Positions 9,929-62,956 of a DNA stretch of 64,000 nucleotides are shown piece by piece. The stretch is from Amphiscolops sp. MND2022. Lineage: Eukaryota. Numbering within the stretch: the stretch's first letter is position 1; each line of letters begins with the position of its first letter. The translations under genes and the position numbers were made by a program. The notes under the pieces were generated by a model, which saw only the letters and a program-made list of their open reading frames with translations, did not search any database and was not told where the DNA came from. The DNA is taken from positions 63,676,001-63,740,000 of the forward strand of contig OZ076409.1 in the NCBI GenBank assembly GCA_964187785.1, in the 5' to 3' direction.

Positions 9929-11841
9929 TGTCGCAGACTGCCGCCTGTGACGGGAATAATTACACTACGACGGCGTCCGAACAGGACATAACACCGGGAA
10001 CGCTACCAATATAGTGAAATACAAACTGCAAACTTTAGAAACTTGTCCTTGTTCCAATTTAGTACCTATTTTACTCATCCATGCACTGATTGTATATTTA
10101 GATAAAATCAATATTAGTCTGTTAAAGTTGTACAATTTGGAAATATCCAAATCAGGCTATTATGCAATGAGTGCAGTTGAAATGCAAAGTTGTCGGATTG
10201 AAAACAGCGTAAACAGGAGCAACTGTAAAGCAGTATAGGAAACGTGTTCGAGTGACGTACAGTGCTATTCCAAAAGCGTCACTTGAGCTCGTTGTCCTGA
10301 CCAATCACATCGCTTCAATTTTGCAAGATTAATACAACTCTAGTATAGTAATGGCCGAATAAGGCCAATTGACTTAGTATGCATGCTTCAAATCACACTT
10401 TAGTCAAACGGCCGGTTCCGGCCGCCTTGATGAAATATGATGATGCTGAACTATTTGTACTTATGATTATTCAAATTAGTCAGGAATTACACTAAACGTG
10501 TTCTTAGTGCTAAATTATACCCCTGTACCGCTCAATGGACTAAATAAGCCCAGTGTTGCCTTGAAGACCGAATAAGGCCTTTTACCACCTTTCCTTTAGT
10601 GCTGAACTAAAAAACCGGATTTGGCCAAATTCGGCCATATTAGAAAAACCTTGTTTTAATAGTGTAGTGATATTTCAAGCAGATCAAGCATGTATTATTT
10701 TATTTTGTTCTTCTCAGCGTTGATTAATAGCCGCGTGGCGGCATGGCGGCACGTGCCATCATAACATACCAATGATGCGAGTTTTGCATTCCGTCAATAG
10801 ACGATAATATTTGTTGACAATAAGTTGATGATATTTTCCATGAATATGCTGTTTGAAGTTGCGACATGTATACCTGTCAAATATTTTTTGTTTGATGTTG
10901 CGTTTCCGAGAATCATGTAAATGTAAGGAATTCTCCCAATTGGGATTTTGTTAAAATATGTACTTTGAGGTTGTTGACTGATATGTGAAGAATGTAACCA
11001 AAGGTATTTGCTGACTTAAATACCTTTCAAAATGTTGTTTCATGTGTATTACATACCTTATGATATTAATCTTGACTAGAAAAATGTGGAAAATGTGAGT
11101 GTCATCCACTCGGGAGTATTAATACTGGTGTTTAGCCTGAGTGGGACACAAATCGTATTCAACGTACCTAGTAAAGATTGTTCTACAAACGGTTCCACTG
11201 TTATTTTCCGAGTTGAGTAATTCATTGTTTAATTCGGACTTTTCTCAATGCCTACTACAAGAAAGCAAAAGAAAGCAAGGAAATCAAGAGGCTTAGAAAT
11301 CCTCTCAGATTTTGAGAACCTTGACATCATGTTAGGTGAGAATCACTTCAATGAGACTGAAAGGGACGAGAGCTTAGATAGTGCTTCCGTCAGAAGACAT
11401 GATAGTGTTATGAGTAATAATCTAGAAAATGAAGGTGGAAGTTCATACTCTAATCATATGAATTCTGACACCGGGACAAATGCCGTTAACGGCCAAAATT
11501 CAGCAGACGTGAGTTCTCAAGCTGAGATCAAAAAATTGTCAAGTGAGCTAAACTCTAGAATATCTAGAGAAATGGATGAGATGATGAACTCAATCAGTAT
11601 TTAGATTCAGAGAGCTATAAATGATGCTATAAGCAATCAGGTATTGCTCCAGATCAGCAAATCCAAAATGTCATTTTGGCCGGATCAGGACGTGCGACTA
11701 GAAAAGGATGGGACGTTTCTGCTGAGAGACCGGAAATTAATCCCGAAGTACAGCGTAACCTAAACGCCAGAAACAACCTGAGAAATGAACAAGACGAAAG
11801 CCACCAAAGTGGTGATTTTCCTAGTTATAATGTTCATGACA
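9929..11841 (+). mobile_element. Solo LTR (1913 bp) of a third giant-Gypsy subfamily related to B
   Basis: Starts TGTCGCAGACTGCCGCCTGTGACGG like the A and B LTRs, ends ...CATGACA, TSD CCCAC (9924-9928 and 11842-11846). Contains the accessory-ORF tail (SQTAACDG...PGTLPI*, to 10014) and the gag N-terminus. Confidence 0.93.
11248..11841 (+). pseudogene. gag: LTR-embedded gag N-terminal segment (stop at 11602-11604 plus a frameshift)
   Basis: MPTTRKQKKARKSRGLEILSDFENLDIMLGENHF...LSSELNSRISREMDEMMNS, closely similar to the element B Gag N-terminus. Confidence 0.85.
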
Positions 11842-15642: not shown

Positions 15643-17145
15643 TGTCGCAGGCGGCCGCCTGTGACGGAATATTATACCAAGTTGGACCCGAAGACGATGA
15701 CACTAATCCCGGACCGGGCGTTTTGCCTATTTGAGAGAAAAACTCCGCAATACGTTAATTATTTAGTTAACAATCTTCTCATGCACTTTAGTTCATTCAT
15801 TTATTCTTATTCATCTTTACATGTAAATATGAAGTCTTATTAATGTGACTCAAGGTCATTTTGACGGCATGAATAATTATATTTTGATTCAATCTTATGT
15901 AAATTAGTTGTTACACCACATTAATAATAATAATGTGAACTAGTACCAAAAGGTGCAAAACGCTGTACAAGCAGTTAATTTGATTGACGTTAATAATAAC
16001 AATAGAAAGCAAGATGACTACTCAAGTGAAAGGAAACGCGTTCAACTGGTACGCTGCTGCCGTCTAGTTGACGCGTAGTCACTTCGCTTCTAACCAATCA
16101 CGGCGCTACATTTAGTTATAGTTCAATGCCGTCATGTGGACGTTAGGTCCAATTAGTTAACGCATGTAGTATTAAATCTGTAGTTGCATGAAAATCACCG
16201 CTAACATGTACCTGTTATTAACCAGTATGTTGCTTCTATTTATAGGACCTATGACGTGTAGTCATATGTCACCTCCGTTGCTATATTTAGAATTGTGATG
16301 TAATAGTTATTTTTAATAATGATGTCATTACTATTTTTACCCAATGACACCCTAAATATTGAGTGTCATACTGTAGTTGCTATATATATGCAAATTTCCA
16401 GTAAGGGATTGATTCATTGTGATAACCTCAATACAAACCGTTCTGATATACACTTTTGATTCGACAATCTATTATTGAACAATACCTTCTTTTGATATGC
16501 CTTCAACTAGAAGACAAAAGGCGAAAGAGAAACGTTCAAGACAGTCTGACATAATGTCTGATATTGAAAATCTAGATGTGATGCTCGGAAATTACTCAAA
16601 CAGTGAAATTAGGGACCAAAACACGGTAGACCAAATAGAAATTGACCCTGAGTCAAGTAGACGGCAACAAGGTTTCAGTCATGAAGAAGGTAACTATAGA
16701 TCTCTTTTGAACACAAATTTGAGTGAGAATAGTGAAATTACAGTAGAAACTAGCAGAGCAATTAGTTCGGAAATTTCTTCGCAGATGTCAAGGAAATTGG
16801 AAGAAATGAAATCTGACTTAAATTCCCATATTATGGAGGTAATAAACTCTGCTATTGATGAAAAAATACTACCGAGCATCGAAAATGTCATAGTAAATCA
16901 CAGGGAGTGTAAAAACGCGAAATTGGACATTCGGTCAGATGGACGGCATCCGAGTAGAAACGTCCCTATGGACCATACTTTGGACCTTGGGTCATATGGA
17001 CGGCATAAAATTAAATTTGGCCAGCAGGTCCAGGACTCAAGAGAGAATTTTCCTAGACTAAGTAAGACAACAAATAACCTTTCAAATCATCAAATGGAAT
17101 GTTCGGGAGATTCTGAACAGAGTGAAAATGATGAAGGTTATGACA
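15643..17145 (+). repeat. 5' LTR of A
   Basis: Direct repeat of 30296-31798; CCAAT near 16094 and TATA-like sequence near 16381 upstream of the gag ATG at 16497. Confidence 0.97.
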
Positions 17146-18293
17146 TGGTGACAGGAGCCAACCCTACTCCACATGTAGTCCCTGAATTTCTGACCGGACG
17201 TCCCACGCAGTCCAGAAACAACATTCCCCATCAACAATGCGTCAACGATGACACATTAGATACCACCCTCCCGGCACAAATTCCCTCAAACCCTATCAAT
17301 GACCGGGAAATGCAGCCCCAAACACCTTTAGACCCCATAAACAGACTTGCCGATGTCATTATGGGAATGAACAACAAATCATCAGCACAAACACTGATGG
17401 TACGACCAGTCAATACTGCCACACTCACATTTGACGGCAAATCTGAAAAATTTGAACTGTTTGAAGACCTTTTTCACACGGTGATAAAGATGCAACCCGA
17501 GATGACGGAAGCTATGAAAATTAATCACTTTCATTCACTGTTGCGCAAAAATGCCCTGCAAACCTTCCGCAACATCAGTTCAGCAAATAGACAAACCTTA
17601 GAAGACGTACTAGCTGTGTTTCGTAGGAAATATGTCAAACCTGAATCCCAGGCAACTGCCAAACATAAATGGCACAAATTGGTATTTGACCCAAACACAA
17701 TGAAATTGCCCGATTTTCTCGAGGAACTCAATCAGGGCGCCGAAAAAGCCTTTGGCGAGCACGCACAAGCCATGATTGACAGTCTACTATACGCAAAACT
17801 TCCACCGAAACTCAAACGTTCAGTCAACATGGCGCGATTAGAGAATGCCACCTACGAAGAAATTGTCACTCATCTCGAACGAGAACTGGAGCTGAATGGA
17901 CTTGAGGAAGGCGACGACATTCCCGTTCCCACAATGTCAACAGCCCCGACAGCCACACGACCGGGTCAAGGACTCCTTTCATCAGGCATTGACCCAGGAA
18001 TAACTTGCAACTACTGCAAAAAACCTGGACATGTCAAAGACGATTGCCGAAAACTAAAACGAAAGGAGGAGCAAAAACGCAATGAAGGCTCGAGTACCAA
18101 AAAAGAGTACCCAAAGTGCCCGACTTGTGACAAAACCAATCACCCGGCGGAGAGATGTTGGAAAGGCGCTGGAGCCCACCTCAAGCCCAAAAACCTCAAA
18201 TTGGATAGTCCAAAGGATGACGACACGACCAGTAGTCGTGATGACCCCACCAATAAACCCACAACTTCTATCCTTAAAAACTCAAAAAACTAG
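16497..18293 (+). CDS. gag: Gag of A (598 aa; first 216 codons inside the LTR)
   Basis: Intact ORF; capsid-like region (FDGKSEKFELFEDLF...), CCHC knuckles CNYCKKPGHVKDDC and CPTCDKTNHPAERC. Confidence 0.95.
   Translation: MPSTRRQKAKEKRSRQSDIMSDIENLDVMLGNYSNSEIRDQNTVDQIEIDPESSRRQQGFSHEEGNYRSLLNTNLSENSEITVETSRAISSEISSQMSRKLEEMKSDLNSHIMEVINSAIDEKILPSIENVIVNHRECKNAKLDIRSDGRHPSRNVPMDHTLDLGSYGRHKIKFGQQVQDSRENFPRLSKTTNNLSNHQMECSGDSEQSENDEGYDMVTGANPTPHVVPEFLTGRPTQSRNNIPHQQCVNDDTLDTTLPAQIPSNPINDREMQPQTPLDPINRLADVIMGMNNKSSAQTLMVRPVNTATLTFDGKSEKFELFEDLFHTVIKMQPEMTEAMKINHFHSLLRKNALQTFRNISSANRQTLEDVLAVFRRKYVKPESQATAKHKWHKLVFDPNTMKLPDFLEELNQGAEKAFGEHAQAMIDSLLYAKLPPKLKRSVNMARLENATYEEIVTHLERELELNGLEEGDDIPVPTMSTAPTATRPGQGLLSSGIDPGITCNYCKKPGHVKDDCRKLKRKEEQKRNEGSSTKKEYPKCPTCDKTNHPAERCWKGAGAHLKPKNLKLDSPKDDDTTSSRDDPTNKPTTSILKNSKN
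17146..17157 (+). promoter_or_regulatory. Primer-binding site TGGTGACAGGAG, inside gag coding sequence
   Basis: Directly follows the LTR end; the identical 12-mer follows the 5' LTR of B (58556-58567, minus strand). tRNA identity uncertain (Leu-like acceptor stem). Confidence 0.85.
18284..18290 (+). promoter_or_regulatory. -1 ribosomal frameshift heptamer A AAA AAC (gag to pol)
   Basis: TCA AAA AAC TAG ends gag; pol is in the -1 frame; same sequence in B (57444-57450, minus strand). Confidence 0.85.
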
Positions 18294-21200
18294 ATTTGCC
18301 ACGACTCCATATTAATGAAAAATTACGCATCAGACAATATATAATATCTGATCCTCCTACTATATACTATACTGAATATTACTCCTCCATTAAAGAAAAT
18401 TCATCAGCTGACTGGCAGCAGCAGGTGAAGCATTTGCCTACTCACTTACACAACCCGGACCTTCAGTCTGACAGACAGCACTCTAATACTACGACCATTC
18501 GCCCCCTTCCCCTAATCGATAACTATAACCCATATTATCCTGACCCGGACTTTGGATTCGACCCCTATTGGGACATTCAAATCTACAACCAACATCAGCT
18601 ACACTTCTACAACAACTTTACCAAAAACATTGCAGATATCGAACCTGATCAACCCCACATTGATCAGATGTTGAACACAAAACTATCCACGGCCTCTGTT
18701 GACCCCTGGCAAAATGTGTGGATTAACACCAATTCACCAATCCAGGAGGCAATATCCGAACAACTTCCACACAATGGACCTTTGGTCACATTGACGGCAA
18801 CAGTGGAAGAGCGCTTTGTGAACACGCTAGTCTCACGAAATGGTGAACCTGACTACGTCCCGTTGACGACCAATTTGGGACTCAAATACAAACGACGGAT
18901 GCTCTACTTCCCCATGGATTTTGGCGAACTAACTTTAGATGGCCTTGTAGACACGGGAGCCCTATCTAGCGCTATCCCAGAAGCTGATCTACGTAAAATC
19001 CGATTACTAGCCCCTCAGTCAATAATTAAAGAGGGCCCAGCACCCAACTTCCAGATTATGGTAGCCAACGGACAGCTGGAGACTCCAAAGAGCACAGTTG
19101 AACTCAAATTCGAGGTCGGCGACATCGATTTCCACGAGATCTTCATTGTTATGGAAAAACTCACAAGTCCGTTAATTGGTCTCTCGTTCCTGCAACGGAA
19201 CAATACCATACTGGACATGCGTCAAGGAGTTTTAAACTTCCCTTTCTTCTCCATGCAATTGAAAACAGCTGACCACAAGTACACTAACGTCATGGAACCT
19301 ATCTGTGCACGGGAGGATATAACTATTCCCCCCAACGACAGACATATGGTTTCCATGTTCTCACAACTATATGACGACACAAACGTCACTGGAATTCTTC
19401 AACCGAGCAACGACCTTGCAGAAGATGGTGATATAACCTTCTGCGCCGCTCTAGTCACACTGACCCAAGGTCAGGTATCAATCCATGTCAACAACTTTAC
19501 TGACCAACCGTACACCCTCAAAAGAGGTGCGCACATTGCCAATTTCTCTATCCTCACACCAGAGCAGATGAAATACGTCAAACCCATTGATCCTGTGACC
19601 ACTTGGCATCTTTTGAAGGATAACCCGGAAAATGCTGCCTATTATGCCAGTAGCCTGATCAAATCTCCGAAAACTAGCGATGATAGTGAGAACTATTGGT
19701 TCCCTACTCCAGAAGAACCAGGAGATCCTCAAACTCACACACCAATACAACAAAGAATCTTTAGGGAACTACGAAATCTCCAAGATCTAGAGAAACTCAA
19801 CCCTCAGGATGACCCTGAATCGCGGAAACAATTTCTTGCTAACTTCGACTGGACAGACTCTACGCTAAATCCAGCCGAAATTGCCCAAATTGAAGAATTA
19901 CTTGTTGAATTTCACGATATTTTTGCACGACACCGCTTTGATATAGGTATGAACGAGGACTTCAAGGTCACTTTGACCCCTAAAGATGACTCTCCTGCCT
20001 ATAGTCAAAGCTTACCTACTCCTATCAACCTCAAAGAAGATATCCTTGTAGAACTAGCCCTACTACACCGATATGGGATTATCACAACTCTCCCATTTTC
20101 CAAATATGCAAGTCCCATTTTCGCCCAGAAAAAACCTAACGGCAAACTTCGACTCCTGGTCGACCTCCGAAAGATCAACAACCTGATTTCCGACGATTAT
20201 ATTAACAACAACCATCCTGTCAGCACACTAACAGATGCTGCGCAGCACATGGCAGGCAAACGATTATTTTGCAAACTTGATTGTTCTCAAGCATACCACT
20301 GCCTTCAGATGGCTGACCAGAGGTCAATCGAGATGCTAGCATTCAATTTTGCCAGCAGAACCTTTGCCTATCGTCGACTTGCCCAAGGTCTCAGCAGAGC
20401 GTTGTCCGCATTCTCGAGCTTTATGCGCGAATACCTGGATAAAGTGATAAAAGCTGACCAATGCGCTCAGTACGTAGATGATATTGGGATAGCTGCAAAC
20501 GACGCTACCCAGCTCATCAACAACCTTCGAGCAACGTTCCAGTGCATCAGGACCGCTGGTCTCAAACTAACGATGCACAAGTGCCATTTCGGAGCCAAGG
20601 AAATAGACTTCCTGGGACGCACCATCACTCCTGAAGGGGTGCGGCCACAACGACCCAGGGTCCAGAATTTCTTGGAAAAGACCAAATTCCCTAAATCCAA
20701 GAAAGCACTTCAAAGATACTTGGGATTCTTGAACTACTACCGTAACTACATCCCAAGGCTCTCAGAAAAACTCACACCGTTTTTCAAGTTATTGAAAAGT
20801 GATGCCAAAGTCATGGTGACACCCGATCTGTTAGAAAAATTCACCGAGATCAACAAAGCTCTTGACCGATGTTGTGAACTGGCACTCAAACAACCTCTAC
20901 CCGATAAACAGATAGCCCTGATGACAGACGCTAGTTTTTCGGCAGCAGGTTATGCAGTTCTCATCGAGGACGATCCGATGGAAAAATATACTTCGACGCG
21001 AAAAGCCTTCGCACCTGTAGCATATGGATCCAAGACCTTTAGTCCAGCCCAACTGAAGATGTCCATTTATGCGAAAGAATTCCTAGCAATATTCTTTGCA
21101 TTCAAAGAGTTTGGCCATATCTTCTGGGGGACCCCGAAACCGGTGATAATACTAACAGACAACAAGTCAGTCACTCGCTTTTTTCAAACAAAAATCATTC

Positions 21201-23473
21201 CACCCACATTGTGGAACGCGTGTGACTACGTTATGCAATTCAGTTTCACAATAGCCCATATACCTGGCAAAAACAATACTGCCGCTGACTACTTGTCACG
21301 TCTAGAAATCTGTCCCAAAGAAAAACTCATACTCCGGATACGAGAAGATATTTCCACCACACCCATTGAACTCAACGTCCAATCAGCGGGAGTTACTGAA
21401 GAAGAACAGATCTTCTATACGGACGAGGATGAAGAAACAGAAGAACAAATCTGGAAACGCAAACAAGACGCCAGGTCAAACCCAATGAATCAACCTCCTG
21501 ATATTTTGTTAGATCATCTTAGCACTCATGATAATACACAATTCCAAACTCAAAATATACAAAAACTGGCAAAACCAACCACCATGGCTATAGAACAACA
21601 GAACGACCTTATCTTGCATCAATTACGACTCAAACTGCAAAAAGAAGAATACTCTGAAACCATCTTACAGCAAGATTCGCGCTACCGACATTACTGCCGC
21701 CAAATTGACCGTCTGTCCGTACATGATGACATCATTCTCAGAGACTACTACGATGAAACAGGCAGTGTCCAATTCCGCCAAGCATTATTACCGAAACACC
21801 TAGTCACAGAATTACTCCAATCACTACATGGTTCCGCGAACAAACACCCGGGAATCTCAAAAATGCTGCACGAAATTCGACGAAAATATTACTATCCTGG
21901 AATCGCAAAAATTGTCAAAAAGTGAGTCCAAGGGTGTGAAATTTGTATAAAAGACAAAAGAATCAACAATGCATCCATAACACCTGAATTACTCATTTTA
22001 CCTGAATGGGATCTTGGCCGGGAAGATGCCTTACAAATTGACATTCTGCCCAACTTACCCCCAAGTGGAGGTTACGAAAATGTCATAACGGCTCTGGACG
22101 TGTTTTCGAGATATCTTTTTGCCTACCCAGTAACGGACGCTTCGGCCATCAATACGGCAAAGGTCATTATTGATATCATGACAAAACATTCCTACTTGCC
22201 GACTACACTCATCACCGACAAAGGCACTGCCTTTACGTCCAAACTACTAGAAGAAATTACCAAAATTTTAGGGATTCACCTTCGGTGCGCGACCACAAAG
22301 CATCCTCAGACGATAGGCAAACTAGAACGCACTCATGCCAGCCTTAAGGGCAACCTTAAAATGGCATCAGGCGAATACAGGCGTCAATGGCACAAATATC
22401 TCCCATTGGCCGTCCTTAATTATAACACGACCTATCATTCAAGTCTTGGATGCGAACCCACCCGAATTTTTCACGGAAGAGTACCCTATAATATCTTAGA
22501 CCATCGGTTAGGATTAAACCCTAACCCAAAGGTCACTCCAACGACTGATTTTGCTGAAGAATTTCAAAGACGCACGCAAATATTAATTGATCAAACAAAG
22601 AAAAACATTATGCAATCATATTTAAAGTACAAGGAATATTATGACCGAAAGGCTAAAGCAGCTCCTCTACAACAAGGAGATTTTTGCTTCATTTTACAAC
22701 CTCTAGCTGACCATCAAGGCTCTAAAATTCCTTTTCGTGAATTTCGTTGGATCGGACCGTACGTCATAGAAAAAGTTTTACCTAACGACAACTATATTGT
22801 TCGCAAACTTAGTACTAACAAAACGCAGATATTACACCGAATACGCCTTAGAAAATACACTCCAAATACTACCCCACAAGACATTCGTCCCGAAGGAAAT
22901 TTACAAGCAGACGATGAAATTATTATTCCACAAGATGATCTGTACATCATTTCATGGGAAACCAATTTTGACGATTTCTCTCCTAACTCTGAAAATCGGA
23001 CTGTTACTAATGAACTCCCTACCAATTCCGATGAACAAGACGCTATAATCACAGATTTGGACCTACGGTCCACGCGACGGCAAACAAATACTGACGCCGC
23101 TCGCGCTGATGATACTGATAGTGACTCACGTTCAAACGAAATAAACGAAGCGGACCTTCGGTCCGCGCGACGGCAATCAAATACTGAGGCTGATAATACA
23201 GAGCAATACTCAAGAAATGCACACAATGAAGACCGTCAGTCCGCTAGACGGCAACAAAGTACCGAATCTGAAAACGATGAATTGACCAATCAGGACCTTC
23301 CTAGAGATGAAAATTCAGAATTTTCAACTTCTGGGGGGAACGATACAACCGTGCCCGATGTATTAATTGAAGAAACTGATGATTGTGTTGTAGAAAATGA
23401 AAGTCCTAGGGGAGGGAGATATAACCTACGTCCCAATCCTACCCCCAACTTTACTGACGAATACAGATACTAG
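18290..23473 (+). pseudogene. pol: Pol of A (PR, dUTPase-like, RT, RNase H, IN) with one in-frame TGA at 21923-21925
   Basis: LVDTGA protease, YVDD RT, TDAS...TDNK RNase H, integrase HHCC/DDE and GPY motif. ORFs 18296-21925 and 22100-23473 share a frame and are separated only by a TGA where B has Trp (KTWVEGC). Confidence 0.93.
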
Positions 23474-23700
23474 TTAGAACATGTAAATTCACTGGCCCGA
23501 CTCAACACCTTTTGACTCTACAATTATCTTTTTATGGGCCTCGACTGACTTGTAGTCCACAATAACAGATCAAACACAAGCATCATAATGACACAACTGT
23601 ACAAACAGACTTCAAATAACGATAAAATAAAAAACTCAAGACTGACAGACAAACGAAAGATACATAAATACAACTAAAAACAAATGTACATATAGTACAA

Positions 23701-26700
23701 TTAAGTGTCTTTAGTAAATGAAGGGGATGGCAATTCACTATCAGATTGCCGCTTAACTGGCGAATTGTTCAAACTGGAGGCAGGAAGACTCTTGGTAACG
23801 CTCCTACCTTTTGGATTCTTGAATTGTATCCTTCGAGAATCAGTCTTCTGAGGGACAGCCTTCGGTTTCAAGACAGAGAGAATGTGGGAACGGTCAAAAT
23901 AATCCAAGCCGTCCCATGGACTGTATGTGTCGGAGAATGCGGAACTTCCAAACGTAGGCTCAAAAGCCAGGAACTCAGAGATCGAAGAAGACGTAGTCAA
24001 GGCGTCGATACTGCGGCCCACATTTATGAAAAAGGATTGCACTGGAAGGATGGTGTCAATCAATTTACTTTTCGGATCATCAGTCCGGACTGGTCCAAAC
24101 TTCACTGAGGGCATAATTGTGTAATCTTCGTCGAGGCACAAACAGCTCAATTTGAAAATACGCGCAAGATGAGGTCGGGACTTTAAGGCATCATGACGCA
24201 ATATGAAGGTAACAGCATCAATGATTATAACCCTGGGCTGGTCCAACTCGGGCATCTCCTTCCTCAATTCGTCCAAGAAGGATAGGTATTCTTCAGTGCA
24301 GACGGATTCATCGGCAGGCTGGAAATACCCACGAAGTTGGAAGCTGCGAAAAAGCAGCTTGAAACAGTAGAGTGCCTGACTGAGTGGCGAACGAAACATG
24401 ATGTCCAGGTCGAAAGATCCGAGTCCTCTGACTATGTCGGACGTAAGTTGCAAATTACTTTGAGCAGCGTGGAACAGATAAGCGACATATGCGCGAGCAA
24501 GACGTCCAAACTCTTCCTTTCCTTCCTTCACAAGTTTGGGCAAATTGGCACGGTTCCCCTTCCTGTCACTCAGTTCTTTCTCTGCCTTGATCTTACAAGC
24601 GACGTTCAGTCGTTGCTCCAGTTTGGATCGCGCAATAAAGTCAGTCACTGTAAGGGCTCTAGCATCAGAAACAACTATGTTCAAAATTCCGGACAAATCA
24701 CTTTCTGGTGGAAGGCTTTTGGGTTTGATGCATCGTCTGCCGAGCTTGAGAAGGAATTGACACAACTGTCGGTAAATATGAAATCCGTGATCACGTCGTT
24801 CGACCAAGTGTGGCACGAAACTAGTAGTGTCTAAATAAAGTATAATATTAAAATTACGCAACCTAACTCAGCGCTATAAACAATGAATAGGAACCACTCA
24901 CAATCCCTGACAAGGCGATAGAAGAGCTCAAGCCGGCAGAGGAACAATTCATCACTGAGCATCGCTCTCTCAAGATTCTGCGGCTGAAAAACAAGATAAT
25001 AACATGAGAAATTTATTTTGGACTTGAGGTCGCAATGACGGCAGAAGCTTACTTGTTTCCTCACCCCCATCATTTCATGGGGCGGAGCGTGAGTATTGAG
25101 ATAAGTAGTAATGCTGGCCCAATTGGCGAGAAGCTCCTGACACAGGGTAGGTAATGTCTCCAGCTCGATTTGACAAGTCCGTACTGCCTAAAATTACTGG
25201 ACTTAAGAACTCAGTTAAGACATAACAAATCAATACAGACTGGGGAAATGACAAACCTTCGCAAGGACGGGGGTTAGGAGAGTCCAATCACAGTCGAGGC
25301 ATCCTCCAAGAAAGACAATGAGATATTTCAGCACAGAATGAAAATCTATCCGTCCGAAAACACTATAGCTTTCTTTGTGCATCAATCTGGCTAAGGAGAA
25401 TTCAGCAAATTGGAGTGGTCGCTGTAGCCCATGTTTACTGAATGGCGAATTGTCTAGAATCTGAATCGTTTCTAGGGTACCACCAGAACAGCTGACGATA
25501 TTGGGAGTAGTTGAGAAGACGGCCATGAGGTCACTGATCAAACTAAGTTCGGCTGAGCTTTGTCCGAGAACTCGTCCGGTACGTTTCAGGAAGACCCGGC
25601 ATAACTCGTCTTTTCGCCAGAACCGGATGAAAACAAGCAGAAAGACTCCCTGCTTCACGAATTCCAGGGAATATTCTCCTGACTCGACCACGTGTGTGCC
25701 AATATCACGAATAGTCTGCAAGAACAAGTGATGGAACAGGACCTGAAAGAACAACAACTAACTTTTAGACATTGTTAACCAAAGGTCAGAAACGGACAAC
25801 AAGTCAGCGTGACGGCAATAAGATACTTACGGACAAGCGTTCTTTACTCCAATCGAAGTCTGTAAATAAGGACTGGTGGTTGACTACAACTCCAATATCC
25901 CGCCACAGGTTCCTCAAAGCACTGATGTCTCCAAAAGAGCGCAAATAATGACCGAGGACTGAAACCTGCACTTTCACCCTGTTCTCCGAAGAGGATGCCA
26001 TGTAATCCGTTCCTCTCAGATAATCGTCATAAAATGGCAGTTTCTCACCAATGTCGACGAGTTCAACTCCAATGAATTTTGGCAGTTCAAGTTGTAGCTC
26101 GTACGGTGTCAGTAGCCTTCCGTCCCCACCGCGGACATGGTGCTTCACCATCTTGGTTACTGGATCTTCAGTCGCAAGATGATGATATCGCCACTTTTGG
26201 TCCCTTCTCAGGTGCTTTTCGGTGCCATGGTGGCGGAGGATTTCTCGTGCTCCCTGACCATAAATTGATACATTGCCCTTGCAAATTTGACAGTATATCT
26301 TGTATGGATTCCATCGAGGATCCATGGGCCCAGACACGAAAGTTTTAGTCCACTCCATGCCTTTAAAATACGCTTCCTTCATGATTTTGCAGGCACGGGG
26401 CACTCGATGTCGATTTCCACTCCTGTTGAGAGATGGTTTCTTGCGAGGTTTTTTCCGAGGAGTAGGCTTAGACTTTTCAGCAATAGCTTCCGCTTTTAAC
26501 ATGGCAAGAGTTTGGGTCCCCGGACTTTCAACTCGGGGTTCACCTTCTATTGACATTGGGACAGTCTGACTGCACCCTGGGGGGCCGACAGGCGGCGGAG
26601 CGAAAGGCTGACTCTCCCCGGACTTTCAACTCGGGGTTCACCTTCTATTGACATTGGGACAGTCTGACTGCACCCTGGGGGGCCGACAGGCGGCGGAGCG

Positions 26701-28232
26701 AAAGGCTGACTCTCAAGGTCAGAATGTTCATAAGCATACCCTATGCTGGCAAACTCATCATCGCTCCTTAAGGCTCCACTGGTATCGCTAGCCTCTCCAG
26801 ATAACAAATCGGATTGCACCCCAGGACTTTGAGTCCGGTAACTAGATCTCTTGGGGGTGACTCTGCCTGATGGAGGAAATTGTGGTGTTCCAAGACTCAA
26901 TCGGCACGTCTGATGAACCAGGTTCTCCATTGCCTTCAGAGAAGACCTAACTGCTTCGTCAGCGACGACCCTCAGAATGTTGCTGACTTGACTCTCATTA
27001 AGGGCTAAAGTTGTATGGCCCGGCGGTAGCATTACTGGAGTCACGGCCTCAAAGCATTCTTTTATCATAACGCGGCTGCTTGCTGAAAGTTGGGGACTTC
27101 GCGTCGCCTCCTCTGGAAAATCCACGGATGTAACACTACCTGCGTCACTGACTCTCAATCGACTCTTGTCCAAAGGAGCATACAGAGCATCCGCTACGGT
27201 TGAGCCAGCAGGACCAGCTGACTCATGCCCGGTATCACTGGCAAATCTATCGGAAGGCACACGTGGACTAGCGACAATTGGGTCGTTTGATCCAAATTCA
27301 TCCGTCGAACTAAGACAACCCTCAGAGTGTGATGAACCTTCTGTCTCAGCATTAGATATGGAAAGCTCTTTTCTAGTCTCACCGATTTTGACGCAGAGTT
27401 TTTGAATCTTCGCCTCAGGTGGCTTATACATCGATTTGAGGTTGCTCTTGATAGGGGCGACAGGGGAATCCAAGAAAGCGACCCTTGATACAGAGTCCGA
27501 ATCGGTTTCAGTGTGGTCTGGTGCATCTCGCTGTGGCATCAACTCTAATGTGATGCTCTCACTGCACTTGCCCAAGTTGCCGTCACTTGGACCTTGGGTA
27601 CGATCTTCGAGAGAATCGCCTAACTGTTGCCATTTTCGAGCTATGTATGCCCCTCAACTCTCGTCAGTGCTGCTGCTTTCCACACCGACAGTTGGTACAA
27701 CGGTCTGTGGAGTTGTTGGCGGTTCAGATTGATTGCATAGCTGAGGATGTTTGCGGCATTACAGTTAGATCCTTTTCCTGCACTTGTTCGGATTCTTTTG
27801 CCTGAGAGCCCTCGGGAATGATTGTAAAATCCATCTCCGTAACAGTCTCGGATCTGGCCGGGGTATCCGTTTGAAGAGTAGCTTCCTTTTGATTGCAGTT
27901 TTGATCACTCAACAAAGTGGGGCTTTCAGCGTGGGGGGATGCAGTCACAAAGGACTCGCTGGTCTCCATTCTTTCTTCCTCCGCATTCAATTGGAGAGGT
28001 TGGTCGTTGAACTCATTATCTAAACGAAATGAGATAAATAAGCGCGGCTCACTTCCTGAATATGAATCCATCTTAGCGCTTTGAACAAAATACTTCCGGA
28101 AGTTCCTTTGACATAATGTTCATACTGTATGTGAACATTTCACGATGGAGGAAGTGACTTTGTTAAAATTAAGAGCCCTGATCAAGCCTAATTTTAACAC
28201 ATTTAAAAGAACCAACCTGACGCTGAATCCAT
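23701..28232 (-). pseudogene. Antisense spliced accessory gene of A (BED-type Zn finger, hAT-transposase-like), disrupted. Predicted exons 28232-28217, 28019-25831, 25742-25257, 25187-25053, 24983-24902, 24830-23701
   Basis: GT-AG introns at the same positions and phases as in B; internal exons 486, 135 and 82 bp in both; CQIC...RHHGTEKH finger. Lesions: frameshift near 27740, TGA at 27654-27656, 98-bp tandem duplication at 26517-26714. First mini-exon less certain (alternative ATG at 28071). Confidence 0.8.
26517..26714. repeat. 98-bp tandem duplication frameshifting the antisense gene
   Basis: Two adjacent copies with period 98; removing one puts ORFs 27575-26547 and 26556-25804 in one frame. 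Confidence 0.92.
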
Positions 28233-28847
28233 GAAGGGTTGGCGGAATTGATGAGATCCTTTTGACACTTGCACTATAAGGAAATTGGATGTTTCTGCAG
28301 CAATGTCCAAATGGTGATTGCTTCAATACCCACTCAAGAGGAAGATGTAACTGTTGCTGGGTACTCAAGGCCAGTGGAGTAAAATTAGTTTTGCTGCCCA
28401 CGAAGAGGGTTGATAGTGTCCAAAATAGAAATCGACAATACAAAATTATGTGATTGGAAGTATAGCTTAAGTTATGGAATGTAGCGGAATCACTAGAATT
28501 AGATTACAGAAAATCAGTGTGCGACTCAAGGTCAGAGAGACTATATAGATTACAAGGTAATGCTGTATAGCTCAAGTGATGCTGCTTGAGAAGACAATAA
28601 TAAACTGAAAGCCAAGTTAGTGCTGAATACTGTCTGGAATGGGACTTAACGTCAACTTGACGGCAGTGTATTACTAGTTCACAATCAAGTATTATTTAAC
28701 AAGTACTTACGAATTGGACGATGAGTCATCATGACGGCACAACGTTACTTGTTACCAAATGTGCTTTATTTCACTTCCTCTACTCAACAACTACTCTTTT
28801 GACTAATTATTACCTCCTACCACTAATTTAGAGTCCCGGACTTCTTA

Positions 28848-28951
<104 letters not shown>

Positions 28952-29583
28952 GTTACTTGGATGTCGTGGCTACATGTAAGACTTTCTTTTATGTTTCCAT
29001 CTTCTCCTTTCCTTTAGTCATGCTCTTCATTCACAGTACATGGTATGGAACCTGCCAGTGAAATATTCATGCACTCCTAACTGTTTCATTTTAATTCTTT
29101 TCTTTCCCCTAAAAAGGCATCGATTTCTTTATTTCATTTCATATTCAAAAAGTTATTAGTCGTATTTTACCAATCAATCCAGCGTCATATGATTGGTTAT
29201 CATCGTTGCTGCCGTCGAAAGGACCGCCGGTCTTTCAAGTTGATTGTTGACAGAAAATTAAGAAGAACAACACTTGAATTAGCAGGCAACTCCTTTGAAG
29301 GAGTAAGCAAACCCTCTATAAGTGGCAATTAAAATTTTGTTATAATAACAACAAAACAGGCTTTGGCGGTCTCAATGAAAGCAAGAAACCTAAATAAGGA
29401 GAGTTTGGGAGAATCTAGCGGGAATGGTACCTTACAATTACCCCCGCCAAATACGAAGGCTGACCTAAGGTCAACTGGACGGCATAACTTCATTCATCGC
29501 CCTAACAATTTCAAAACCAGTAGACTGCTTCTGAACTGCTCAAAATTGCACGAAAACTGTTTCTATCACGTTATTCACGAGAA

Positions 29584-30387
29584 ATGTCTTTGCAGTTTAA
29601 CACTGAGGGTATAAATGGACCATTAGTGAGTCTTTCCTATCGATCCTCTGATGAAGAAATGGAAGTAGATTCCATCTACTCAGTACACGATAGCGACGAT
29701 GACGACATTCAAGTCATAGCCTGCTACTACGAAAATCAGGAATTTCCACCACAGCTGACGGCAGGTAGAGCTATGACTACGGACTTGTCTGACTGCCTCG
29801 GTTACTTAAGCTTACCGGAAACCACTTCGGAAAGCTACTTTACCGAGCCGACGGAAGAGCTTATCGATTGGTTCGTCGGAAGTCCACCGTCAACCTACTC
29901 CGGGGTACAGCCACAACAACATCCTATAGCTCAATGTAGTCAAATTGACCCATTGCCTTACTCGCCATTATCGCCGCCACTGATCGATCAATTCCCCAAC
30001 TACGCACCAAGGGTCAACGATCATGAGGTCCAAGAAGAGCCGCAATGGGCTAGGAACCAACACATCACTGGCCTGGGCATCAGCGCAAGCGGACTATGCG
30101 GACAGCCCAATGACGTGCTCTACGGTGGTTGTGTTGTCTGCGGGAAATCGTTCCAGGCAATAAAGGAAGAGGTGACACTCGGCTTTCTAGAAAGTACTCA
30201 TGTTCCTGGAGAGACGTACGAACAACGACAAGCGAGACGGCGAGCCTTCGAAGCTGGAATGAAAGCCGGATCTTTCATTGTCATCCCCCGGGGAGTGTCG
30301 CAGGCGGCCGCCTGTGACGGAATATTATACCAAGTTGGACCCGAAGACGATGACACTAATCCCGGACCGGGCGTTTTGCCTATTTGA
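29584..30387 (+). CDS. Sense accessory ORF of A (267 aa), ends 92 bp inside the 3' LTR; function unknown
   Basis: Intact ORF homologous to 46785-46000 (SPxSPP, GCxVCGxS, AxExGxxAG, VSQAAACDG, PGxLPI). Exact start uncertain. Confidence 0.85.
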   Translation: MSLQFNTEGINGPLVSLSYRSSDEEMEVDSIYSVHDSDDDDIQVIACYYENQEFPPQLTAGRAMTTDLSDCLGYLSLPETTSESYFTEPTEELIDWFVGSPPSTYSGVQPQQHPIAQCSQIDPLPYSPLSPPLIDQFPNYAPRVNDHEVQEEPQWARNQHITGLGISASGLCGQPNDVLYGGCVVCGKSFQAIKEEVTLGFLESTHVPGETYEQRQARRRAFEAGMKAGSFIVIPRGVSQAAACDGILYQVGPEDDDTNPGPGVLPI

Positions 30388-31798
30388 GAGAAAAACTCCG
30401 CAATACGTTAATTATTTAGTTAACAATCTTCTCATGCACTTTAGTTCATTCATTTATTCTTATTCATCTTTACATGTAAATATGAAGTCTTAATAATGTG
30501 ACTCAAGGTCATTTTGACGGCATGAATAATTATATTTTGATTCAATCTTATGTAAATTAGTTGTTACACCACATTAATAATAATAATGTGAACTAGTACC
30601 AAAAGGTGCAAAACGCTGTACAAGCAGTTAATTTGATTGACGTTAATAATAACAATAGAAAGCAAGATGACTACTCAAGTGAAAGGAAACGCGTTCAACT
30701 GGTACGCTGCTGCCGTCTAGTTGACGCGTAGTCACTTCGCTTCTAACCAATCACGGCGCTACATTTAGTTATAGTTCAATGCCGTCATGTGGACGTTAGG
30801 TCCAATTAGTTAACGCATGTAGTATTAAATCTGTAGTTGCATGAAAATCACCGCTAACATGTACCTGTTATTAACCAGTATGTTGCTTCTATTTATAGGA
30901 CCTATGACGTGTAGTCATATGTCACCTCCGTTGCTATATTTAGAATTGTGATGTAATAGTTATTTTTAATAATGATGTCATTACTATTTTTACCCAATGA
31001 CACCCTAAATATTGAGTGTCATACTGTAGTTGCTATATATATGCAAATTTCCAGTAAGGGATTGATTCATTGTGATAACCTCAATACAAACCGTTCTGAT
31101 ATACACTTTTGATTCGACAATCTATTATTGAACAATACCTTCTTTTGATATGCCTTCAACTAGAAGACAAAAGGCGAAAGAGAAACGTTCAAGACAGTCT
31201 GACATAATGTCTGATATTGAAAATCTAGATGTGATGCTCGGAAATTACTCAAACAGTGAAATTAGGGACCAAAACACGGTAGACCAAATAGAAATTGACC
31301 CTGAGTCAAGTAGACGGCAACAAGGTTTCAGTCATGAAGAAGGTAACTATAGATCTCTTTTGAACACAAATTTGAGTGAGAATAGTGAAATTACAGTAGA
31401 AACTAGCAGAGCAATTAGTTCGGAAATTTCGTCGCAGATGTCAAGGAAATTGGAAGAAATGAAATCTGACTTAAATTCCCATATTATGGAGGTAATAAAC
31501 TCTGCTATTGATGAAAAAATACTACCGAGCATCGAAAATGTCATAGTAAATCACAGGGAGTGTAAAAACGCGAAATTGGACCTTCGGTCAGATGGACGGC
31601 ATCCGAGTAGAAACGTCCCTATGGACCATACTTTGGACCTTGGGTCATATGGACGGCATAAAATTAAATTTGGCCAGCAGGTCCAGGACTCAAGAGAGAA
31701 TTTTCCTAGACTAAGTAAGACAACAAATAACCTTTCAAATCATCAAATGGAATGTTCGGGAGATTCTGAACAGAGTGAAAATGATGAAGGTTATGACA
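30296..31798 (+). repeat. 3' LTR of A (second copy of the gag 5' end from 31150, reading into flank to 31854)
   Basis: Direct repeat of 15643-17145 followed by TSD CTATA. Confidence 0.97.
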
Positions 31799-44218: not shown

Positions 44219-46088
44219 TGTCGTAAGCACGAGAGTTTGTGCTTGTGAGTCCGTCTTTGGAACGGTCATTGGTTTGTTTGTTCTTAGAATTGTTCCTAGG
44301 TTCTAAGTTTTGCAGTACTTCAGAATATCCTTCCGGTCTCTCATCCGGAACGTTCCATCTCTCTCTGGTCAATTGTCCCGATCCGACCAAAACTGCATTT
44401 AGGATTTGAGGCAAAATTTGACTACTAATTGCCTCATTTATGGCCCTTTGAATCTGAACACTGACGCTACTCATCATTTCATCCATCTCTCGAGATATAC
44501 GTGAATTTAAGTCACTCGACAATCTATTGATCTCAACGCTTGAACACTCCCTGATCGAATTATGGCCTAATTCGGTATTTGGACTTGGTCCGTTATTTCT
44601 TGGATTCGGGAACCCATTTTCATTTTCATCTCCAAATTCATCTCCAAACAAGCTTTCTGGCCTACCGGCTTGATTACTATTCACACTTTCATTTCTCTCA
44701 TTTCTTTCAAAATGGTTTTCACCTAACATAATGTCCAGGTTTTCAATATCTGATAACATGTCAAGTCCTCTAGACTTTCTTGCTTTCTTTTGCTTTCTAG
44801 TGGTAGGCATCAAGACAGAACCGGGTTGAATAATTCAATTATTAAAACCGGAAAACTGACAAAAGTCGTTGTATTATTTCGATCTTTATCAAAGTGAGGG
44901 TATGAGATTAATGATCTTTTTACAAGAATATGGCTATATATACTCGTAAAAGGATGACACTCACATTCCATAAATTCTTTGATCAAGAAAAACATCACAT
45001 GACTATGGCTTCAACAGGTCATTTGACAAATGCTATTTCCACGTTAGGTAAGTTATTCAGCACTTCAAAGCGGATACTTTAGGGTGATGTCCCGATTAGG
45101 GAAATTCCTAGTTTCGGGGTAGCCCTTAGGAATTCAACATCAAAGGAATGCTATTTAAAAGTATACACAAGCAGCACCTTCAAGTGTCGTGTTTACAAAC
45201 ATCATCAACATCATCCTGTCAACAAATACCAATGTCTATTGAAGGAATGCAAAAGGCATCTCTTTGGAACGTACTTGTGACACGCGCTACCACGCGCCTA
45301 TTATTTAACGTAAGTGGGGACTAGATTAAATACTACATGATCAGTTCTGCTTAAAATACTACAGCACTATTAAAATAACACACTTTCTGGCAATGCCGAA
45401 AATGGACAAAATCCGGTTTACTAATACAGCACTATAATAAAAGAGGGCAAAAGCCTTATTCGGCTTTTGAGTGATCACTAAGTTTATTAGGCTCATTGCA
45501 CGGTGTTGGTACTTTCATTCGTTATTAAGGGTACATTTGCAGTAATACACGATTAGTACACTCAATTAACACACATATAAGCTATTCCAATGGAGTGGCC
45601 GGAACCGGCCGTTTGACTAAAAGGCACAATTATTGAGTCAATTGGCCATACTCGGCCACTACATAATCGGAGTGGTATTACTTATAGAAAAGGAGCATTG
45701 TGATTGGTTAAGGAGTTGAGCTCAAGTGACGTCTCCGGAATAGGAGTTTCGTTCACTTGAACTCGTTTCCTTTCTACTGCACAGCTACATTGTCACGTAT
45801 TACGTTTACAATAGCAACGCATCTTTCAATCTTCTGAAGTTACAAATACACTATTTGAATCTTCAAATGTAACTTTTAACAGACTAATTTTACATGTGCA
45901 AGTATATATATATATATCGGAGCTAACAACATCAACAAATATATTACGTATTGAATAACAAAACAGTATGAAAGTTCTAAGTTTGTAGGTTATTCCAATT
46001 CAATAAATGGGTAATGTTCCTGGTACAAATTCTTGTCCGGTTGCCGAGGTCGTCACACTTGTACCGTCACAGGCGGCAGCCTGCGACA
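44219..46088 (-). repeat. 3' LTR of B (1870 bp); gag 5' copy from 44810 reads into flank to 44097
   Basis: Minus strand TGTCGCAGGCTGCC...TTACGACA; about 15 substitutions and a 4-bp TA indel versus 58568-60433. Confidence 0.95.
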
Positions 46089-46785
46089 CTGCGGGAGCAA
46101 TAAAAAGAAAACAGCCAGCATTGAGTCCGTTCTCGTACGCTTCCTTCCTAAGCCTGGTGATGTACTCGGGCTCATCTCTGGGTGTGGATCGCTGCATGTA
46201 CCATTCCACCTTCTCGTTCTTGATCGAGTCTACTGAACGGCCGCAAACCATGCATCCCGTATAAGGCACCACGCTAACATTTTGATAAGGCACTGTGTTT
46301 TGCACATGGTAGGACGCGTAAAACCCGCTCATTGGTGGTTGGACTAAAGGGGTATCCTGACTTGGTCCTCTTTCGTGGTCCGGCGGCGACATCGGGGACT
46401 CTAGAATTGGTAAGATTGTATTGCACAGTTCGATGCGTGACTTTTCCATCCTTTTAGGAGGGGCATAGCACCTTTCTAAGTCGAAGTACTTGTGATCCAT
46501 TTTTGGCGTCTTCTCAGCACTTACACCTGATGTGCTTGGTCCAGTCACTGACGCATCTTCTTCAGGTATCTCCGATGCCATTATCCTTCCCCCAATGAGC
46601 ATAGGGCTAGATGTTACTTCTCTTTCTATCTGCGCTATCAGTTGTTCTGTATCGGTGGAACAATCCGTCTCCCAGTCTGACTCTTCGCTCTCACTACTCG
46701 ATATGTAGATTACCGATTTCTCAGAGCCGTCTGAGTCGAATTCTTCTAAGTCGAATAACTTCCTTGCGAGGTTGTATTTACTCAT
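46000..46785 (-). CDS. Sense accessory ORF of B (261 aa), ends 89 bp inside the 3' LTR
   Basis: Intact; homologous to 29584-30387. Confidence 0.88.
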   Translation of the reverse strand: MSKYNLARKLFDLEEFDSDGSEKSVIYISSSESEESDWETDCSTDTEQLIAQIEREVTSSPMLIGGRIMASEIPEEDASVTGPSTSGVSAEKTPKMDHKYFDLERCYAPPKRMEKSRIELCNTILPILESPMSPPDHERGPSQDTPLVQPPMSGFYASYHVQNTVPYQNVSVVPYTGCMVCGRSVDSIKNEKVEWYMQRSTPRDEPEYITRLRKEAYENGLNAGCFLFIAPAVSQAAACDGTSVTTSATGQEFVPGTLPIY

Positions 46786-47703
46786 GATGACTTTCTTCGC
46801 TATTTTGAAGCTTGTGGATGCAACTGTATCGTGATGAAGTTTTAGGATAGAATGAATTTGTCAAATCCAAAATTTAGTCGAGTAAGGTGTTTTCCCGAAG
46901 TTTCCAATTTGGCGGTTAGACCTTCGGTTAATCGTCCTGATCTGTCATAAACTTTCCAGAATGGAATTCCTCAGCTTGTCGGCTCCCTTTGATAACATGA
47001 TGTTTACCCCTCATCAGTGTCATCACTAGAAGAGGTGTGAATGACTCTCAGCTTATGAATATCAACTACACCCGTCTCAAGTGGGTAATTAACGGGTCGC
47101 TTGCAAGCAATTAACGGCGCTTGTCGGATAAAACTCACTGAAATGGCTTCAGCCAATCAAATTTGAGCTTCGATAAAATTGGAAAATTGAATAATAAAGA
47201 TGGCGTAAAATAATAATTTTGAATAACTAAAATGACGAAAATAATAAATCTAAATAATCCAAGATGGCGAAAATTCTAACTAAGGGAAACTAGGGTATCT
47301 GGACGTAATGGCAAAACGAAGTAGGGCAAGCGGCCGTAACCGGCCTCTAACTGAATAAGCTGTAACAACTAACGCTCTTTGTACATTTCGCTGGCAGACT
47401 CCATGTACATTTTAAATATGTAAATAATCAAACAATATTAGTCTGGTAAATCTCTTCAGCCACGAACTCCAACTTTCCAATTCTTTTATTCATTTTTAAT
47501 TCCATTCCAATTCTATTTATATATCAATTGTACCCCTTACTGGGATCCTCCCGACTGGTATTCATCTTCCCTTTGTCTCTAACTCTGCTGTCGATCCCCT
47601 CTGTGCAGCACTAGGGCCCTTAACTTCAGTCCATCCACGGCCATTTCCTTCAGCTTCTTTCGCCCTACGAGAGCATTTATTGCACGAATATCATCACGAC
47701 AAC

Positions 47704-62953: not shown

Positions 62954-62956
62954 CCC

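Follow-up and report, generated by a model that had tools for sequence, protein, structure and literature searches.

How retrotransposons persist against silencing by their hosts is an open question, and plant DNA transposons are known to encode sequence-specific counter-measures of their own (VANC, TnpA); anti-silencing is likewise named for DNA transposons in the available part of 10.1101/2024.04.02.587720. In the VANDAL elements of Arabidopsis, which are plant MuDR DNA transposons, an element-encoded protein is paired with short family-specific motifs, of which many copies lie in intronic, intergenic and terminal DNA; these motifs are contiguous, 8-9 nt long, built from tandem repeats and non-coding, and protein and motif diverge together (PMC5735166, available part). 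Regulators of the Spm TnpA type are of transposase origin, have lost catalytic residues, stay within their own DNA-transposon superfamily and have motif clusters that are family-specific and follow the phylogeny of the elements (10.64898/2026.08.24.746577, in whose main text, as available, neither 'retrotransposon' nor 'LTR' occurs). The BED fingers of the Hermes transposase bind a quasi-palindrome cooperatively, a finger pair occupying the quasi-palindrome and a third finger a third repeat in strict phasing, at sites that lie at the element ends and serve cut-and-paste; the fingers read bases via S66, N67 and R70 ahead of the zinc ligand H71 (PMC10368747, available part). The plant gypsy elements Retand/Tat have a long region between pol and the 3' LTR, an antisense gene with a proposed role in DNA binding, and family-specific repeats, which the available part of PMC11963269 describes as tandem arrays without a demonstrated target motif. 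Our literature search, over titles and the starts of abstracts, found no such self-recognition in a retrotransposon, prior annotation in supplements or repeat databases being possible; PMC9911081, in its available text, concerns LTR content only.

We analysed a window of 64,000 nucleotides from Amphiscolops sp. MND2022 (contig OZ076409.1), whose features are collected in Table 1. Element A (15643-31798) is a Ty3/gypsy LTR retrotransposon with the Pfam order RVT_1, RT_RNaseH and rve in pol and a 5-bp target-site duplication (CTATA); pol of this copy has an in-frame stop at 21923-21925. Like VANDAL elements, it carries a family-specific motif in many copies, and its sister element B differs in both protein and motif. 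Unlike them, A is an LTR retrotransposon with dispersed, spaced palindromes, many of them coding, and an unrelated protein; VANC-like tandem arrays of non-coding motifs were rejected as a description, since no array overlies the motif and 7 of the 16 full copies are coding. Whereas TnpA-type regulators keep to their own superfamily, A apparently holds a class II protein in a class I element, and its sites are internal and element-wide rather than terminal as in Hermes. Unlike the TRP28 ORFs of Retand/Tat, the antisense gene of A is predicted to be spliced and BED/hAT-like, and no TRP28 Pfam domain was found, at E values up to 1, in the antisense ORF of either element A or element B. On our best reading, the A/B system would work like plant VANC/TnpA without being a member of it.

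Table 1. Features of the window (positions count from its first letter)
Feature	Position	Strand	Remarks
Solo LTR C	9929..11841	+	target duplication CCCAC; four GCC-N6-GGC sites
5' LTR of element A	15643..17145	+	1503 nt, TGT...ACA; holds first ~215 codons of gag
Three full copies in U3	15847+, 16058-, 16127- (15847..16149)		repeated in 3' LTR at 30500, 30711, 30780
gag with zinc knuckles	16497..18293	+	
Three full copies, gag N-terminus	16644, 16926, 16983 (16644..17005)	+	repeated in 3' LTR at 31297, 31579, 31636
Primer-binding-like TGGTGACAGGAG	17146		
pol	18278..23473	+	PR, dUTPase-like, RT, RNase H, integrase
Full copy in pol N-terminal extension before protease	18777..18799	+	other frame, G-P-L-V-T-L-T-A
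Ten GAC-N5-GTC palindromes in RT/RNase H/connection/integrase	20151..22765		starts 20151, 20315, 20551, 20652, 21034, 21158, 21287, 21467, 21707, 22755
Three full copies, integrase tail	23060, 23153, 23231 (23060..23253)	+	
Antisense gene of A, five predicted exons	23701..28072	-	exon match and GT..AG borders common to element B
Predicted introns of antisense gene	25743-25830, 25188-25256, 24984-25052, 24831-24901	-	
Two full copies in antisense gene introns 3 and 1	25021, 25795 (25021..25817)	+	
BED-like zinc finger	26212..26292	-	C-x2-C...H-x5-H; candidate motif reader
Four full copies between divergent starts of antisense gene and ORF-X	28643+, 28717+, 29210-, 29462+ (28643..29484)		
ORF-X, second accessory gene	29524..30387	+	terminates within LTR; acidic N-terminus, C-x2-C
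3' LTR of element A	30296..31798	+	3 differences from 5' LTR
Sister element B	44219..60433	-	own palindrome GCC-N6-GGC, 11 sites in 44219-58567
Antisense gene of B, homologous to that of A	47870-51998	+	in-frame stop at 49514-49516

The original prediction listed 21 starts of GAC-N5-GTC-N5-GACGGCA in element A, and every one proved exact and on the strand given; 27578- is indeed a one-mismatch copy. The list lacked an exact copy at 18777+ and one-mismatch copies at 18458+ and 21695-. In all, element A holds 22 exact copies (16 counting one LTR) and the other 47.8 kb of the window none, and the motif is absent from 200 dinucleotide shuffles of 15643-30295 (0 versus 16 real). The core unit is the palindrome GAC-N5-GTC, which occurs 37 times in these 14.7 kb compared to 2.6 expected from the shuffles, a density of 2.5 per kb across the element, RT and integrase coding DNA included. 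Its spacing is strict: among GAC-n-GTC-m-GAC arrangements with spacers of 2 to 9, there are 20 at 5/5 and 0-1 at each of the 63 other spacings. The claim that the motif spares the PR/RT/RH/IN core stood for the full motif, but the core is rich in the two-half-site palindrome, with 7 in a 1.3-kb RT-RNase H stretch and 3 in the connection/integrase region. Full copies occur both in non-coding (9/16) and in coding DNA (7/16), three are reversed, and 10 of the 16 lie in U3, 5' gag or the divergent intergenic region. Two of those in U3 (16058- and 16127-) flank a CCAAT box, those in the gag N-terminus translate as D-x-x-S-x-[RG]-R-[QH], and the two intronic copies lie 9 nt and 13 nt from the donors of introns 3 and 1. 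The full copies are not duplications of one another, because their spacers and 30-nt flanks are on average only 33% and 30% identical. CpG observed/expected is 0.85 in A, 0.79 in B and 1.07-1.10 elsewhere, values that are uninformative as to silencing.

We compared motif counts in coding DNA with those obtained when the proteins were held fixed and the codons redrawn 1000 times. The coding DNA of A has 25 GAC-N5-GTC palindromes compared to 5.15 expected (maximum 13), and PR-RT-RH of A has 12 compared to 2.04; selection therefore acts at the nucleotide level. No motif excess was seen in this test in the antisense exons and ORF-X of A, and B has no excess of the A palindrome (2 versus 2.08). Indeed, B has its own: GCC-N6-GGC occurs 7 times in B with proteins fixed, versus 1.17 expected (maximum 6), and twice in A versus 0.96. 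Thus, the A motif is absent from element B, as had been claimed, but B nevertheless bears a palindrome, which emerged from a two-block scan after an earlier 3x3-mer scan of B had shown little. In the U3 alignment, with the CCAAT box on one side and a shared CAATT on the other, GGAC-N5-GTCC of A lies opposite GGCC-N6-GGCC of B and solo LTR C; the two palindromes differ by one base and by one spacer base. The flanks have 4 GCC-N6-GGC in 19.3 kb compared to 0.7 expected (maximum 4).

A codon shadow of the motif is kept by relatives in three frames. Among 22 gag N-termini less than 75% identical, we found 45 strict footprints versus 0.145 in shuffles, three representatives having none. In 53 loose gag footprints, residue 3 is never F/Y/C/H/I/N/D (0/53, background 27%), residue 6 is G/R in 45 and residue 7 is L/P/H/R in 51, as the fixed bases of the motif require. 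Subfamilies differ in their footprints, with R, L or P at residue 7 and E at residue 6 in 6/53, and the finger is nearly identical across subfamilies despite these differences in the last bases. Footprints in the other frames are conserved in pol of relatives P0117 and P0123 and in antisense exon 1 of P0001, P0005, P0012 and P0014. In an integrase tree using 101 of 122 rows, the A footprint is found in the tails of 17/18 A-clade members compared to 1/83 others and the B footprint in 11/23 of the B clade (12/23 are without it) compared to 2/78 others. None of these footprint counts is a tally of independent events, since they come from related sequences at a small number of homologous positions. 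Windows of protein sequence that permit GAC-N5-GTC in the 700 core residues number 5-8 in the A clade and 1-6 in others, only a mild clade separation. Scanning viral, metagenome and genome contigs at the protein level for the DNA of full relatives yielded nothing; a search with the LTR-start pattern gave no viral and two short metagenome loci, of which L001 is an LTR edge only and L002 (ORF-X with ~500 nt upstream) has no GAC-N5-GTC in a stretch too short to call the motif.

Several leads point to a hAT origin of the antisense gene. Both antisense genes of the window are broken; in A, exon 1 has a frame break near 27654-28000 as well as a duplication of 98 bp (26517-26714). Residues C54, C57, H74 and H80 of the finger are invariant in 34 aligned rows, and a Foldseek search listed the ZBED1 BED finger at rank 4 (E 1.6, rmsd 2.6 over 38 columns). 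The last-exon structure has its longest match with the Hermes transposase among the 50 matches listed, albeit at rank 41, with 165 residues aligned between Hermes 364-609 and model residues 1-276 (Z 4.6, rmsd 5.0). An atlas search with P0080 returned hAT/ZBED-type clusters in all 10 listed (scores 0.86-0.89), these neighbours carrying ZBED RNase-like, DUF659 and DUF4371 domains, and zf-BED clusters all scored below 0.9. These three leads are concordant, each weak singly and none significant. Pfam searches of 12 proteins from the window, of aligned sets of 34 and 60 members and of P0080 gave no BED or hAT family; PDB sequence searches were blank; the exon-1 model gave only small helical matches to structure representatives; Foldseek of the last exon gave nothing below E 1.3, and the atlas search with it no usable match. 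A homodimer prediction for exon 1 residues 22-207, in which the alignment was not used, was uninformative (score 0.00). By eye, V/E/A and S occupy the positions in exon 2 at which what we take to be the hAT motif would have two Asp, and the presumed C..H.LNL is changed. From these leads, the antisense gene is likely to derive from a hAT transposase and to carry a BED-like finger, and common ancestry with Hermes transposase is likely.

hAT DNA transposons have terminal inverted repeats and an 8-bp target duplication. Element A was rejected as such a transposon, as its ends are LTRs, the duplications of A and C are 5 bp, and no inverted-repeat pair of at least 40 nt was found around the antisense gene. 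Because of the 5-bp target duplications and TG..CA ends, it is the integrase, and not the antisense protein, that moves the element.

We modestly favor the following reading: the motif, a spaced palindromic signal specific to the family and maintained by selection over the whole element, is likely bound by the element's own non-cutting, hAT-derived antisense protein, which would keep the family transcribed. The strict spacing, both orientations, several frames, synonymous excess and conservation in relatives are best read as the predicted DNA-level site for a multimeric sequence-specific protein, and the antisense product is its likely binder. By analogy to Hermes, one BED-like finger would read one GAC half-site, two fingers the palindrome GAC-N5-GTC, and an oligomer would add a third finger on the GACGGCA half-site. 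This would give strong three-half-site sites in introns, in disordered parts of the coding DNA and at both the LTR promoter and the internal divergent promoters; stretches with constrained protein sequence would have the weaker form of two half-sites. The antisense protein, predicted to have lost cutting activity, would then coat copies of its own family, which may stay transcribed through anti-silencing or activation; this last step is the least supported. The finger residue equivalent to Hermes S66, counted from the first His and scored in 80 of 95 rows, is R/K in 72/72 rows outside the clade of B and L/M/V/Y in 8/8 inside, and thus the residue that probably reads bases differs between the clades. 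Counting against our reading, A and B are the only two cases in which motif and finger can be tied to one element (n=2), the relatives being unlinked proteins. The near-constancy of the finger across subfamilies with different footprints, the gag representatives and B-clade tails without a footprint, the GCC-N6-GGC sites in the flanks, the lack of excess in the antisense exons and ORF-X of A, and the broken state of both antisense genes also tell against it.

Other readers of the motif can be imagined. The sites could recruit a dimeric transcription factor of the host, or a different paralogue for each of the two families, and so activate the element in germ or stem cells; LTRs often gather host sites, three full copies lie by a CCAAT box, and half-sites of some copies resemble RGGTCA-like words. 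However, a nuclear receptor would be hard to reconcile with RGKTCA half-sites at 5 of 48 positions and the IR3 core GGTCA-N3-TGACC in 0/16 copies, and the sites extend through pol and introns. The change of one base and one spacer base at the same place in sister families fits a co-evolving element protein better than a host factor, which we regard as unlikely. ORF-X as the element-encoded reader is favored by its C-x2-C and basic helix, conserved in A, B (which also has ORF-X) and L002, and by the four full copies upstream of it; ORF-X is without a known DNA-binding fold, its Pfam search gave no family, and its acidic N-terminus, which we take to be SIM-like, would suit a co-factor; we hold this reading to be very improbable. 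It is also improbable, to a lesser degree, that the antisense protein binds its sites for another end, such as escort or protection of the cDNA or pre-integration complex, insulation, or limiting its own family. The spread of sites over the whole element, and the ability of hAT proteins to oligomerise and bridge DNA (PMC10368747, available part), are compatible with such uses, but the three-half-site form is concentrated at promoters and 5' regions (10/16), and the precedents for transposase-derived binders in the available part of 10.64898/2026.08.24.746577 are regulatory.

The pattern might instead need no protein reader. As a small hairpin in RNA or single-stranded cDNA, with a GAC/GTC stem and a 5-nt loop, it could serve packaging or family-specific dimerisation; the palindrome can pair on either strand, the sites in pol would be accounted for, and pairing probability exceeds 0.6 in 7/16 copies. 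It is, however, at most 0.13 in 8/16, complementarity between the spacers is slight, at 5-7 of 16 per position, the asymmetric GACGGCA end is present on either strand (3/16 reversed) and also within antisense-gene introns, and Rfam gave no match apart from one chance row, so that we give the hairpin little credence. A repeated peptide (D-x-x-S-x-R-R-Q) or local duplication would be in line with the single frame shared by 6 of the 7 full coding copies and with the integrase-tail flanks, the most alike of all at up to 50%. This reading, which the original prediction had also discarded, is largely refuted by the fivefold excess with the protein fixed; moreover, 9/16 copies are non-coding, three frames are in use, flanks are dissimilar on average, and no tandem array overlaps a motif copy.

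If recognition by the element's own antisense protein is correct, an LTR retrotransposon would have a self-encoded counter-measure whose protein came from the other class of transposons. A bolder version, which we hold as tentative, is that a large clade of LTR retrotransposons took up a hAT transposase as a spliced, non-cutting, oligomeric DNA reader and rewrote its own genomes, synonymous RT codons included, into arrays of the reader's site; finger and site would then have diverged per family (GAC-N5-GTC versus GCC-N6-GGC) into a private code for self-recognition and anti-silencing, in what is likely an animal host. A single small domain and two oligonucleotides would suffice to test the idea directly, and the dozens of finger variants among natural relatives (93 clusters), with at least two motifs, offer a natural series for the recognition code of BED fingers.

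The spaced motif GAC-N5-GTC-N5-GACGGCA is a real feature of element A. A scan of both strands of the window finds 22 exact copies and three copies with one mismatch, all within element A, as the original prediction had it; the copies listed there were recovered, and one more had been overlooked. With a single LTR counted, element A holds 16 exact copies, and none arose in 200 dinucleotide shuffles. The 5/5 pair of spacings yields 20 matches, compared to 0-1 for each other pair of the 64. The copies are, on average, unrelated outside the fixed bases (mean identity 33% in spacers and 30% in flanks) and none is covered by a tandem array, so the earlier claim of differing spacers without simple tandem duplication holds. 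A decayed small gypsy element, used as the negative control, has neither this motif nor the GCC-N6-GGC palindrome of element B.

Features of the window and of two short metagenome loci (L001, L002)
Feature	Position	Strand	Remark
Decayed small gypsy element	3121-9034		180-bp LTRs
C	9929-11841	+	Solo LTR, B type
Peptide D-S-A-S-V-R-R-H	11248-11604		Gag start of C
AT-rich repeat family with GATATGGCGCCGAC	12040-13900, 31797-31852, 36715-36993		Dispersed; A inserted into it
Element A	15643-31798	+	Ty3/gypsy
Exact full-motif copies	15847-31658	both	Overlooked copy at 18777 (+)
Primer-binding-like TGGTGACAGGAG	17146; 58567	+; -	Inside gag frame, ~215 codons past start
dUTPase-like domain	~19300-19545	+	After protease, before RT; Pfam 25.2 bits (cut-off 22), E 1.5e-5
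(TTA)37 microsatellite	28845-28955		Intergenic region, among full-motif copies
ORF-X	29524-30387; 46000-46860; L002 98-790	+; -; -	Three families
Element B	44219-60433	-	Layout as in A
LTR first 25 nt	15643, 30296, 9929, 46088, 60433; L001 14-38, L002 98-122		Nearly invariant across families
Partial unit upstream of B	58568-62956		Tandem arrangement, LTR in common with B; interrupted at 62957 by sequence 99.8% identical to 40778-41821

The unit of the motif is the palindrome GAC-N5-GTC, which is selected at the nucleotide level. Element A contains 37 in 14.7 kb compared to 2.6 expected (maximum 8), seven of them in the RT-RNase H stretch, while GAC and GTC at other spacings occur 1-10 times; the half-sites show a weak preference for (G/T)GAC(C/T). 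When each protein was fixed and codons were redrawn 1000 times from the element's own usage, 5.15 palindromes were expected in A coding DNA (maximum 13) and 25 are found. The corresponding values are 12 versus 2.04 for PR-RT-RH of A and 2 versus 2.08 for B coding DNA; the antisense exons and ORF-X of A show no excess in this test. The peptides R-L-L-V-D and D-Q-R-S-I are the same in A and B, but only A codons spell the palindrome.

Relatives, obtained as proteins (333 listed across three homologue searches), preserve the motif. From the best 120 of 2699 gag matches, 93 with long N-termini were reduced to 22 representatives (<75% identity), which carry 45 strict footprints compared to 0.145 in shuffles; three of the 22 have none. 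Residue 6 is mostly G/R and residue 7 is R, L or P, choices that track the fixed bases and not chemistry; E stands at residue 6 in 6/53 loose footprints. Thus, the core GAC-N5-GTC-N5-GAC-NN-CA is clade-wide and the GG of A subfamily-level. Relatives of pol and of antisense exon 1 preserve the motif in two further frames. In the integrase tree (101 of 122 rows; 21 rows without the anchor were left out), the A footprint occurs in 17 of the 18 A-clade tails (seven being identical rows) versus 1 of 83 others, counts that reflect related sequences at few places and not independent events. The footprint is changed in one gag subgroup (P0233, P0283, P0300), and residues are changed in one finger subgroup (P0048-P0056, I-R-A-K-G-P-K-E); these subgroups may represent a third motif type.

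De novo scans of B and C returned GCCG-N4-CGGC. GCC-N6-GGC occurs 11 times in B (1.46 expected) and four times in C (0.06), compared to two in A (1.4) and four in 19.3 kb of flanks (0.7); in B coding DNA, with proteins fixed, there are 7 versus 1.17. The B-type peptide shadow is found in 11 of 23 B-clade integrase tails versus 2 of 78 others. As with the A motif, palindromes are located in U3, the internal intergenic region and the integrase tail, and C also has the palindrome in 5' gag. In the U3 alignment, past a common CCAAT box, GGAC-N5-GTCC of A lies opposite GGCC-N6-GGCC, which suggests a single ancestral site altered by one base and a spacer step. The AT-rich repeat family has GCC-N6-GGC in two copies. 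The D-S-A-S-V-R-R-H peptide of C is possibly a decayed A-type footprint; if so, the A type would be older.

Element A has 1503-nt LTRs differing at three positions, TG..CA ends and a flanking CTATA duplication; five-base duplications indicate insertion by integrase. It codes gag, then PR-dUTPase-like-RT-RNase H-integrase, followed before the 3' LTR by an antisense gene and the sense ORF-X. The antisense gene has five predicted exons with borders matching between A and B. Introns are of the GT-AG type, and the host, a eukaryote, is probably an animal. Exon 1, with relatives in 93 clusters, ends in a C-x2-C...H-x5-H finger (pLDDT ~90). Pfam reports no BED or hAT family for the antisense proteins and their relatives. 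Three weak leads agree in making hAT ancestry likely: ZBED1's BED finger matches the exon-1 finger in structure search (E 1.6, not significant alone), the last exon's longest match is Hermes residues 364-609 (165 aligned, Z 4.6, not significant alone), and 10/10 atlas rows for P0080, a natural read-through antisense protein, are hAT-type (0.86-0.89, not significant alone). By-eye comparison with the hAT pattern suggests changes at the catalytic acids.

The study of Hermes describes a cooperative finger pair on a quasi-palindrome and a third finger on a third repeat, in strict phasing; the base readers are S66, N67 and R70, which precede the zinc His (PMC10368747). The full A motif comprises three half-sites in 8-bp steps, and the antisense protein fits as its candidate reader. 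Counting from the first His, we infer that R70 and N67 correspond to R73 and E70, almost fixed in both clades; the S66 position is R/K in 72/72 rows outside the B clade and hydrophobic in 8/8 inside (80 of 95 rows), motif and finger being joined in one element for A and B only.

By analogy, we somewhat favor the antisense protein coating integrated copies of its own family and keeping them active. Predicted binding would be strongest at promoters, and 10 of the 16 full copies fall either in U3 or 5' gag or in the intergenic region between the diverging antisense gene and ORF-X; coated copies would stay active, as with plant VANC and TnpA. Binding by a host factor is unlikely, as the nuclear-receptor fit fails, and slightly less probable is that the antisense protein binds the motif in a role other than keeping copies active. 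ORF-X as reader seems quite improbable, as does, to the same degree, an RNA hairpin, in which pairing is inconsistent among copies. A peptide repeat as the source of the pattern is barely credible: the excess persists with proteins fixed, in agreement with the original prediction.

Published reports state that VANC and TnpA keep their own families active in plants (PMC5735166; 10.64898/2026.08.24.746577), and the proposed mode of action is alike. However, the element class and protein differ, and here the sites are dispersed, spaced and in coding DNA. Retand elements share the antisense layout, with no target motif described (PMC11963269). Outside subscription papers, supplements and repeat databases, we found no description of such a system.

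ORF-X contains C-x2-C and an acidic N-terminal patch, I-Y-[IL]-S-S-[SD]-E-S-E in B and L002 and looser in A, which resembles a SUMO-interacting motif; ORF-X may be an anti-silencing co-factor. The LTR is coding at both ends: its first 25 nt specify the ORF-X C-terminus (V-S-Q-A-A-A-C-D-G), and its opposite end falls within gag.
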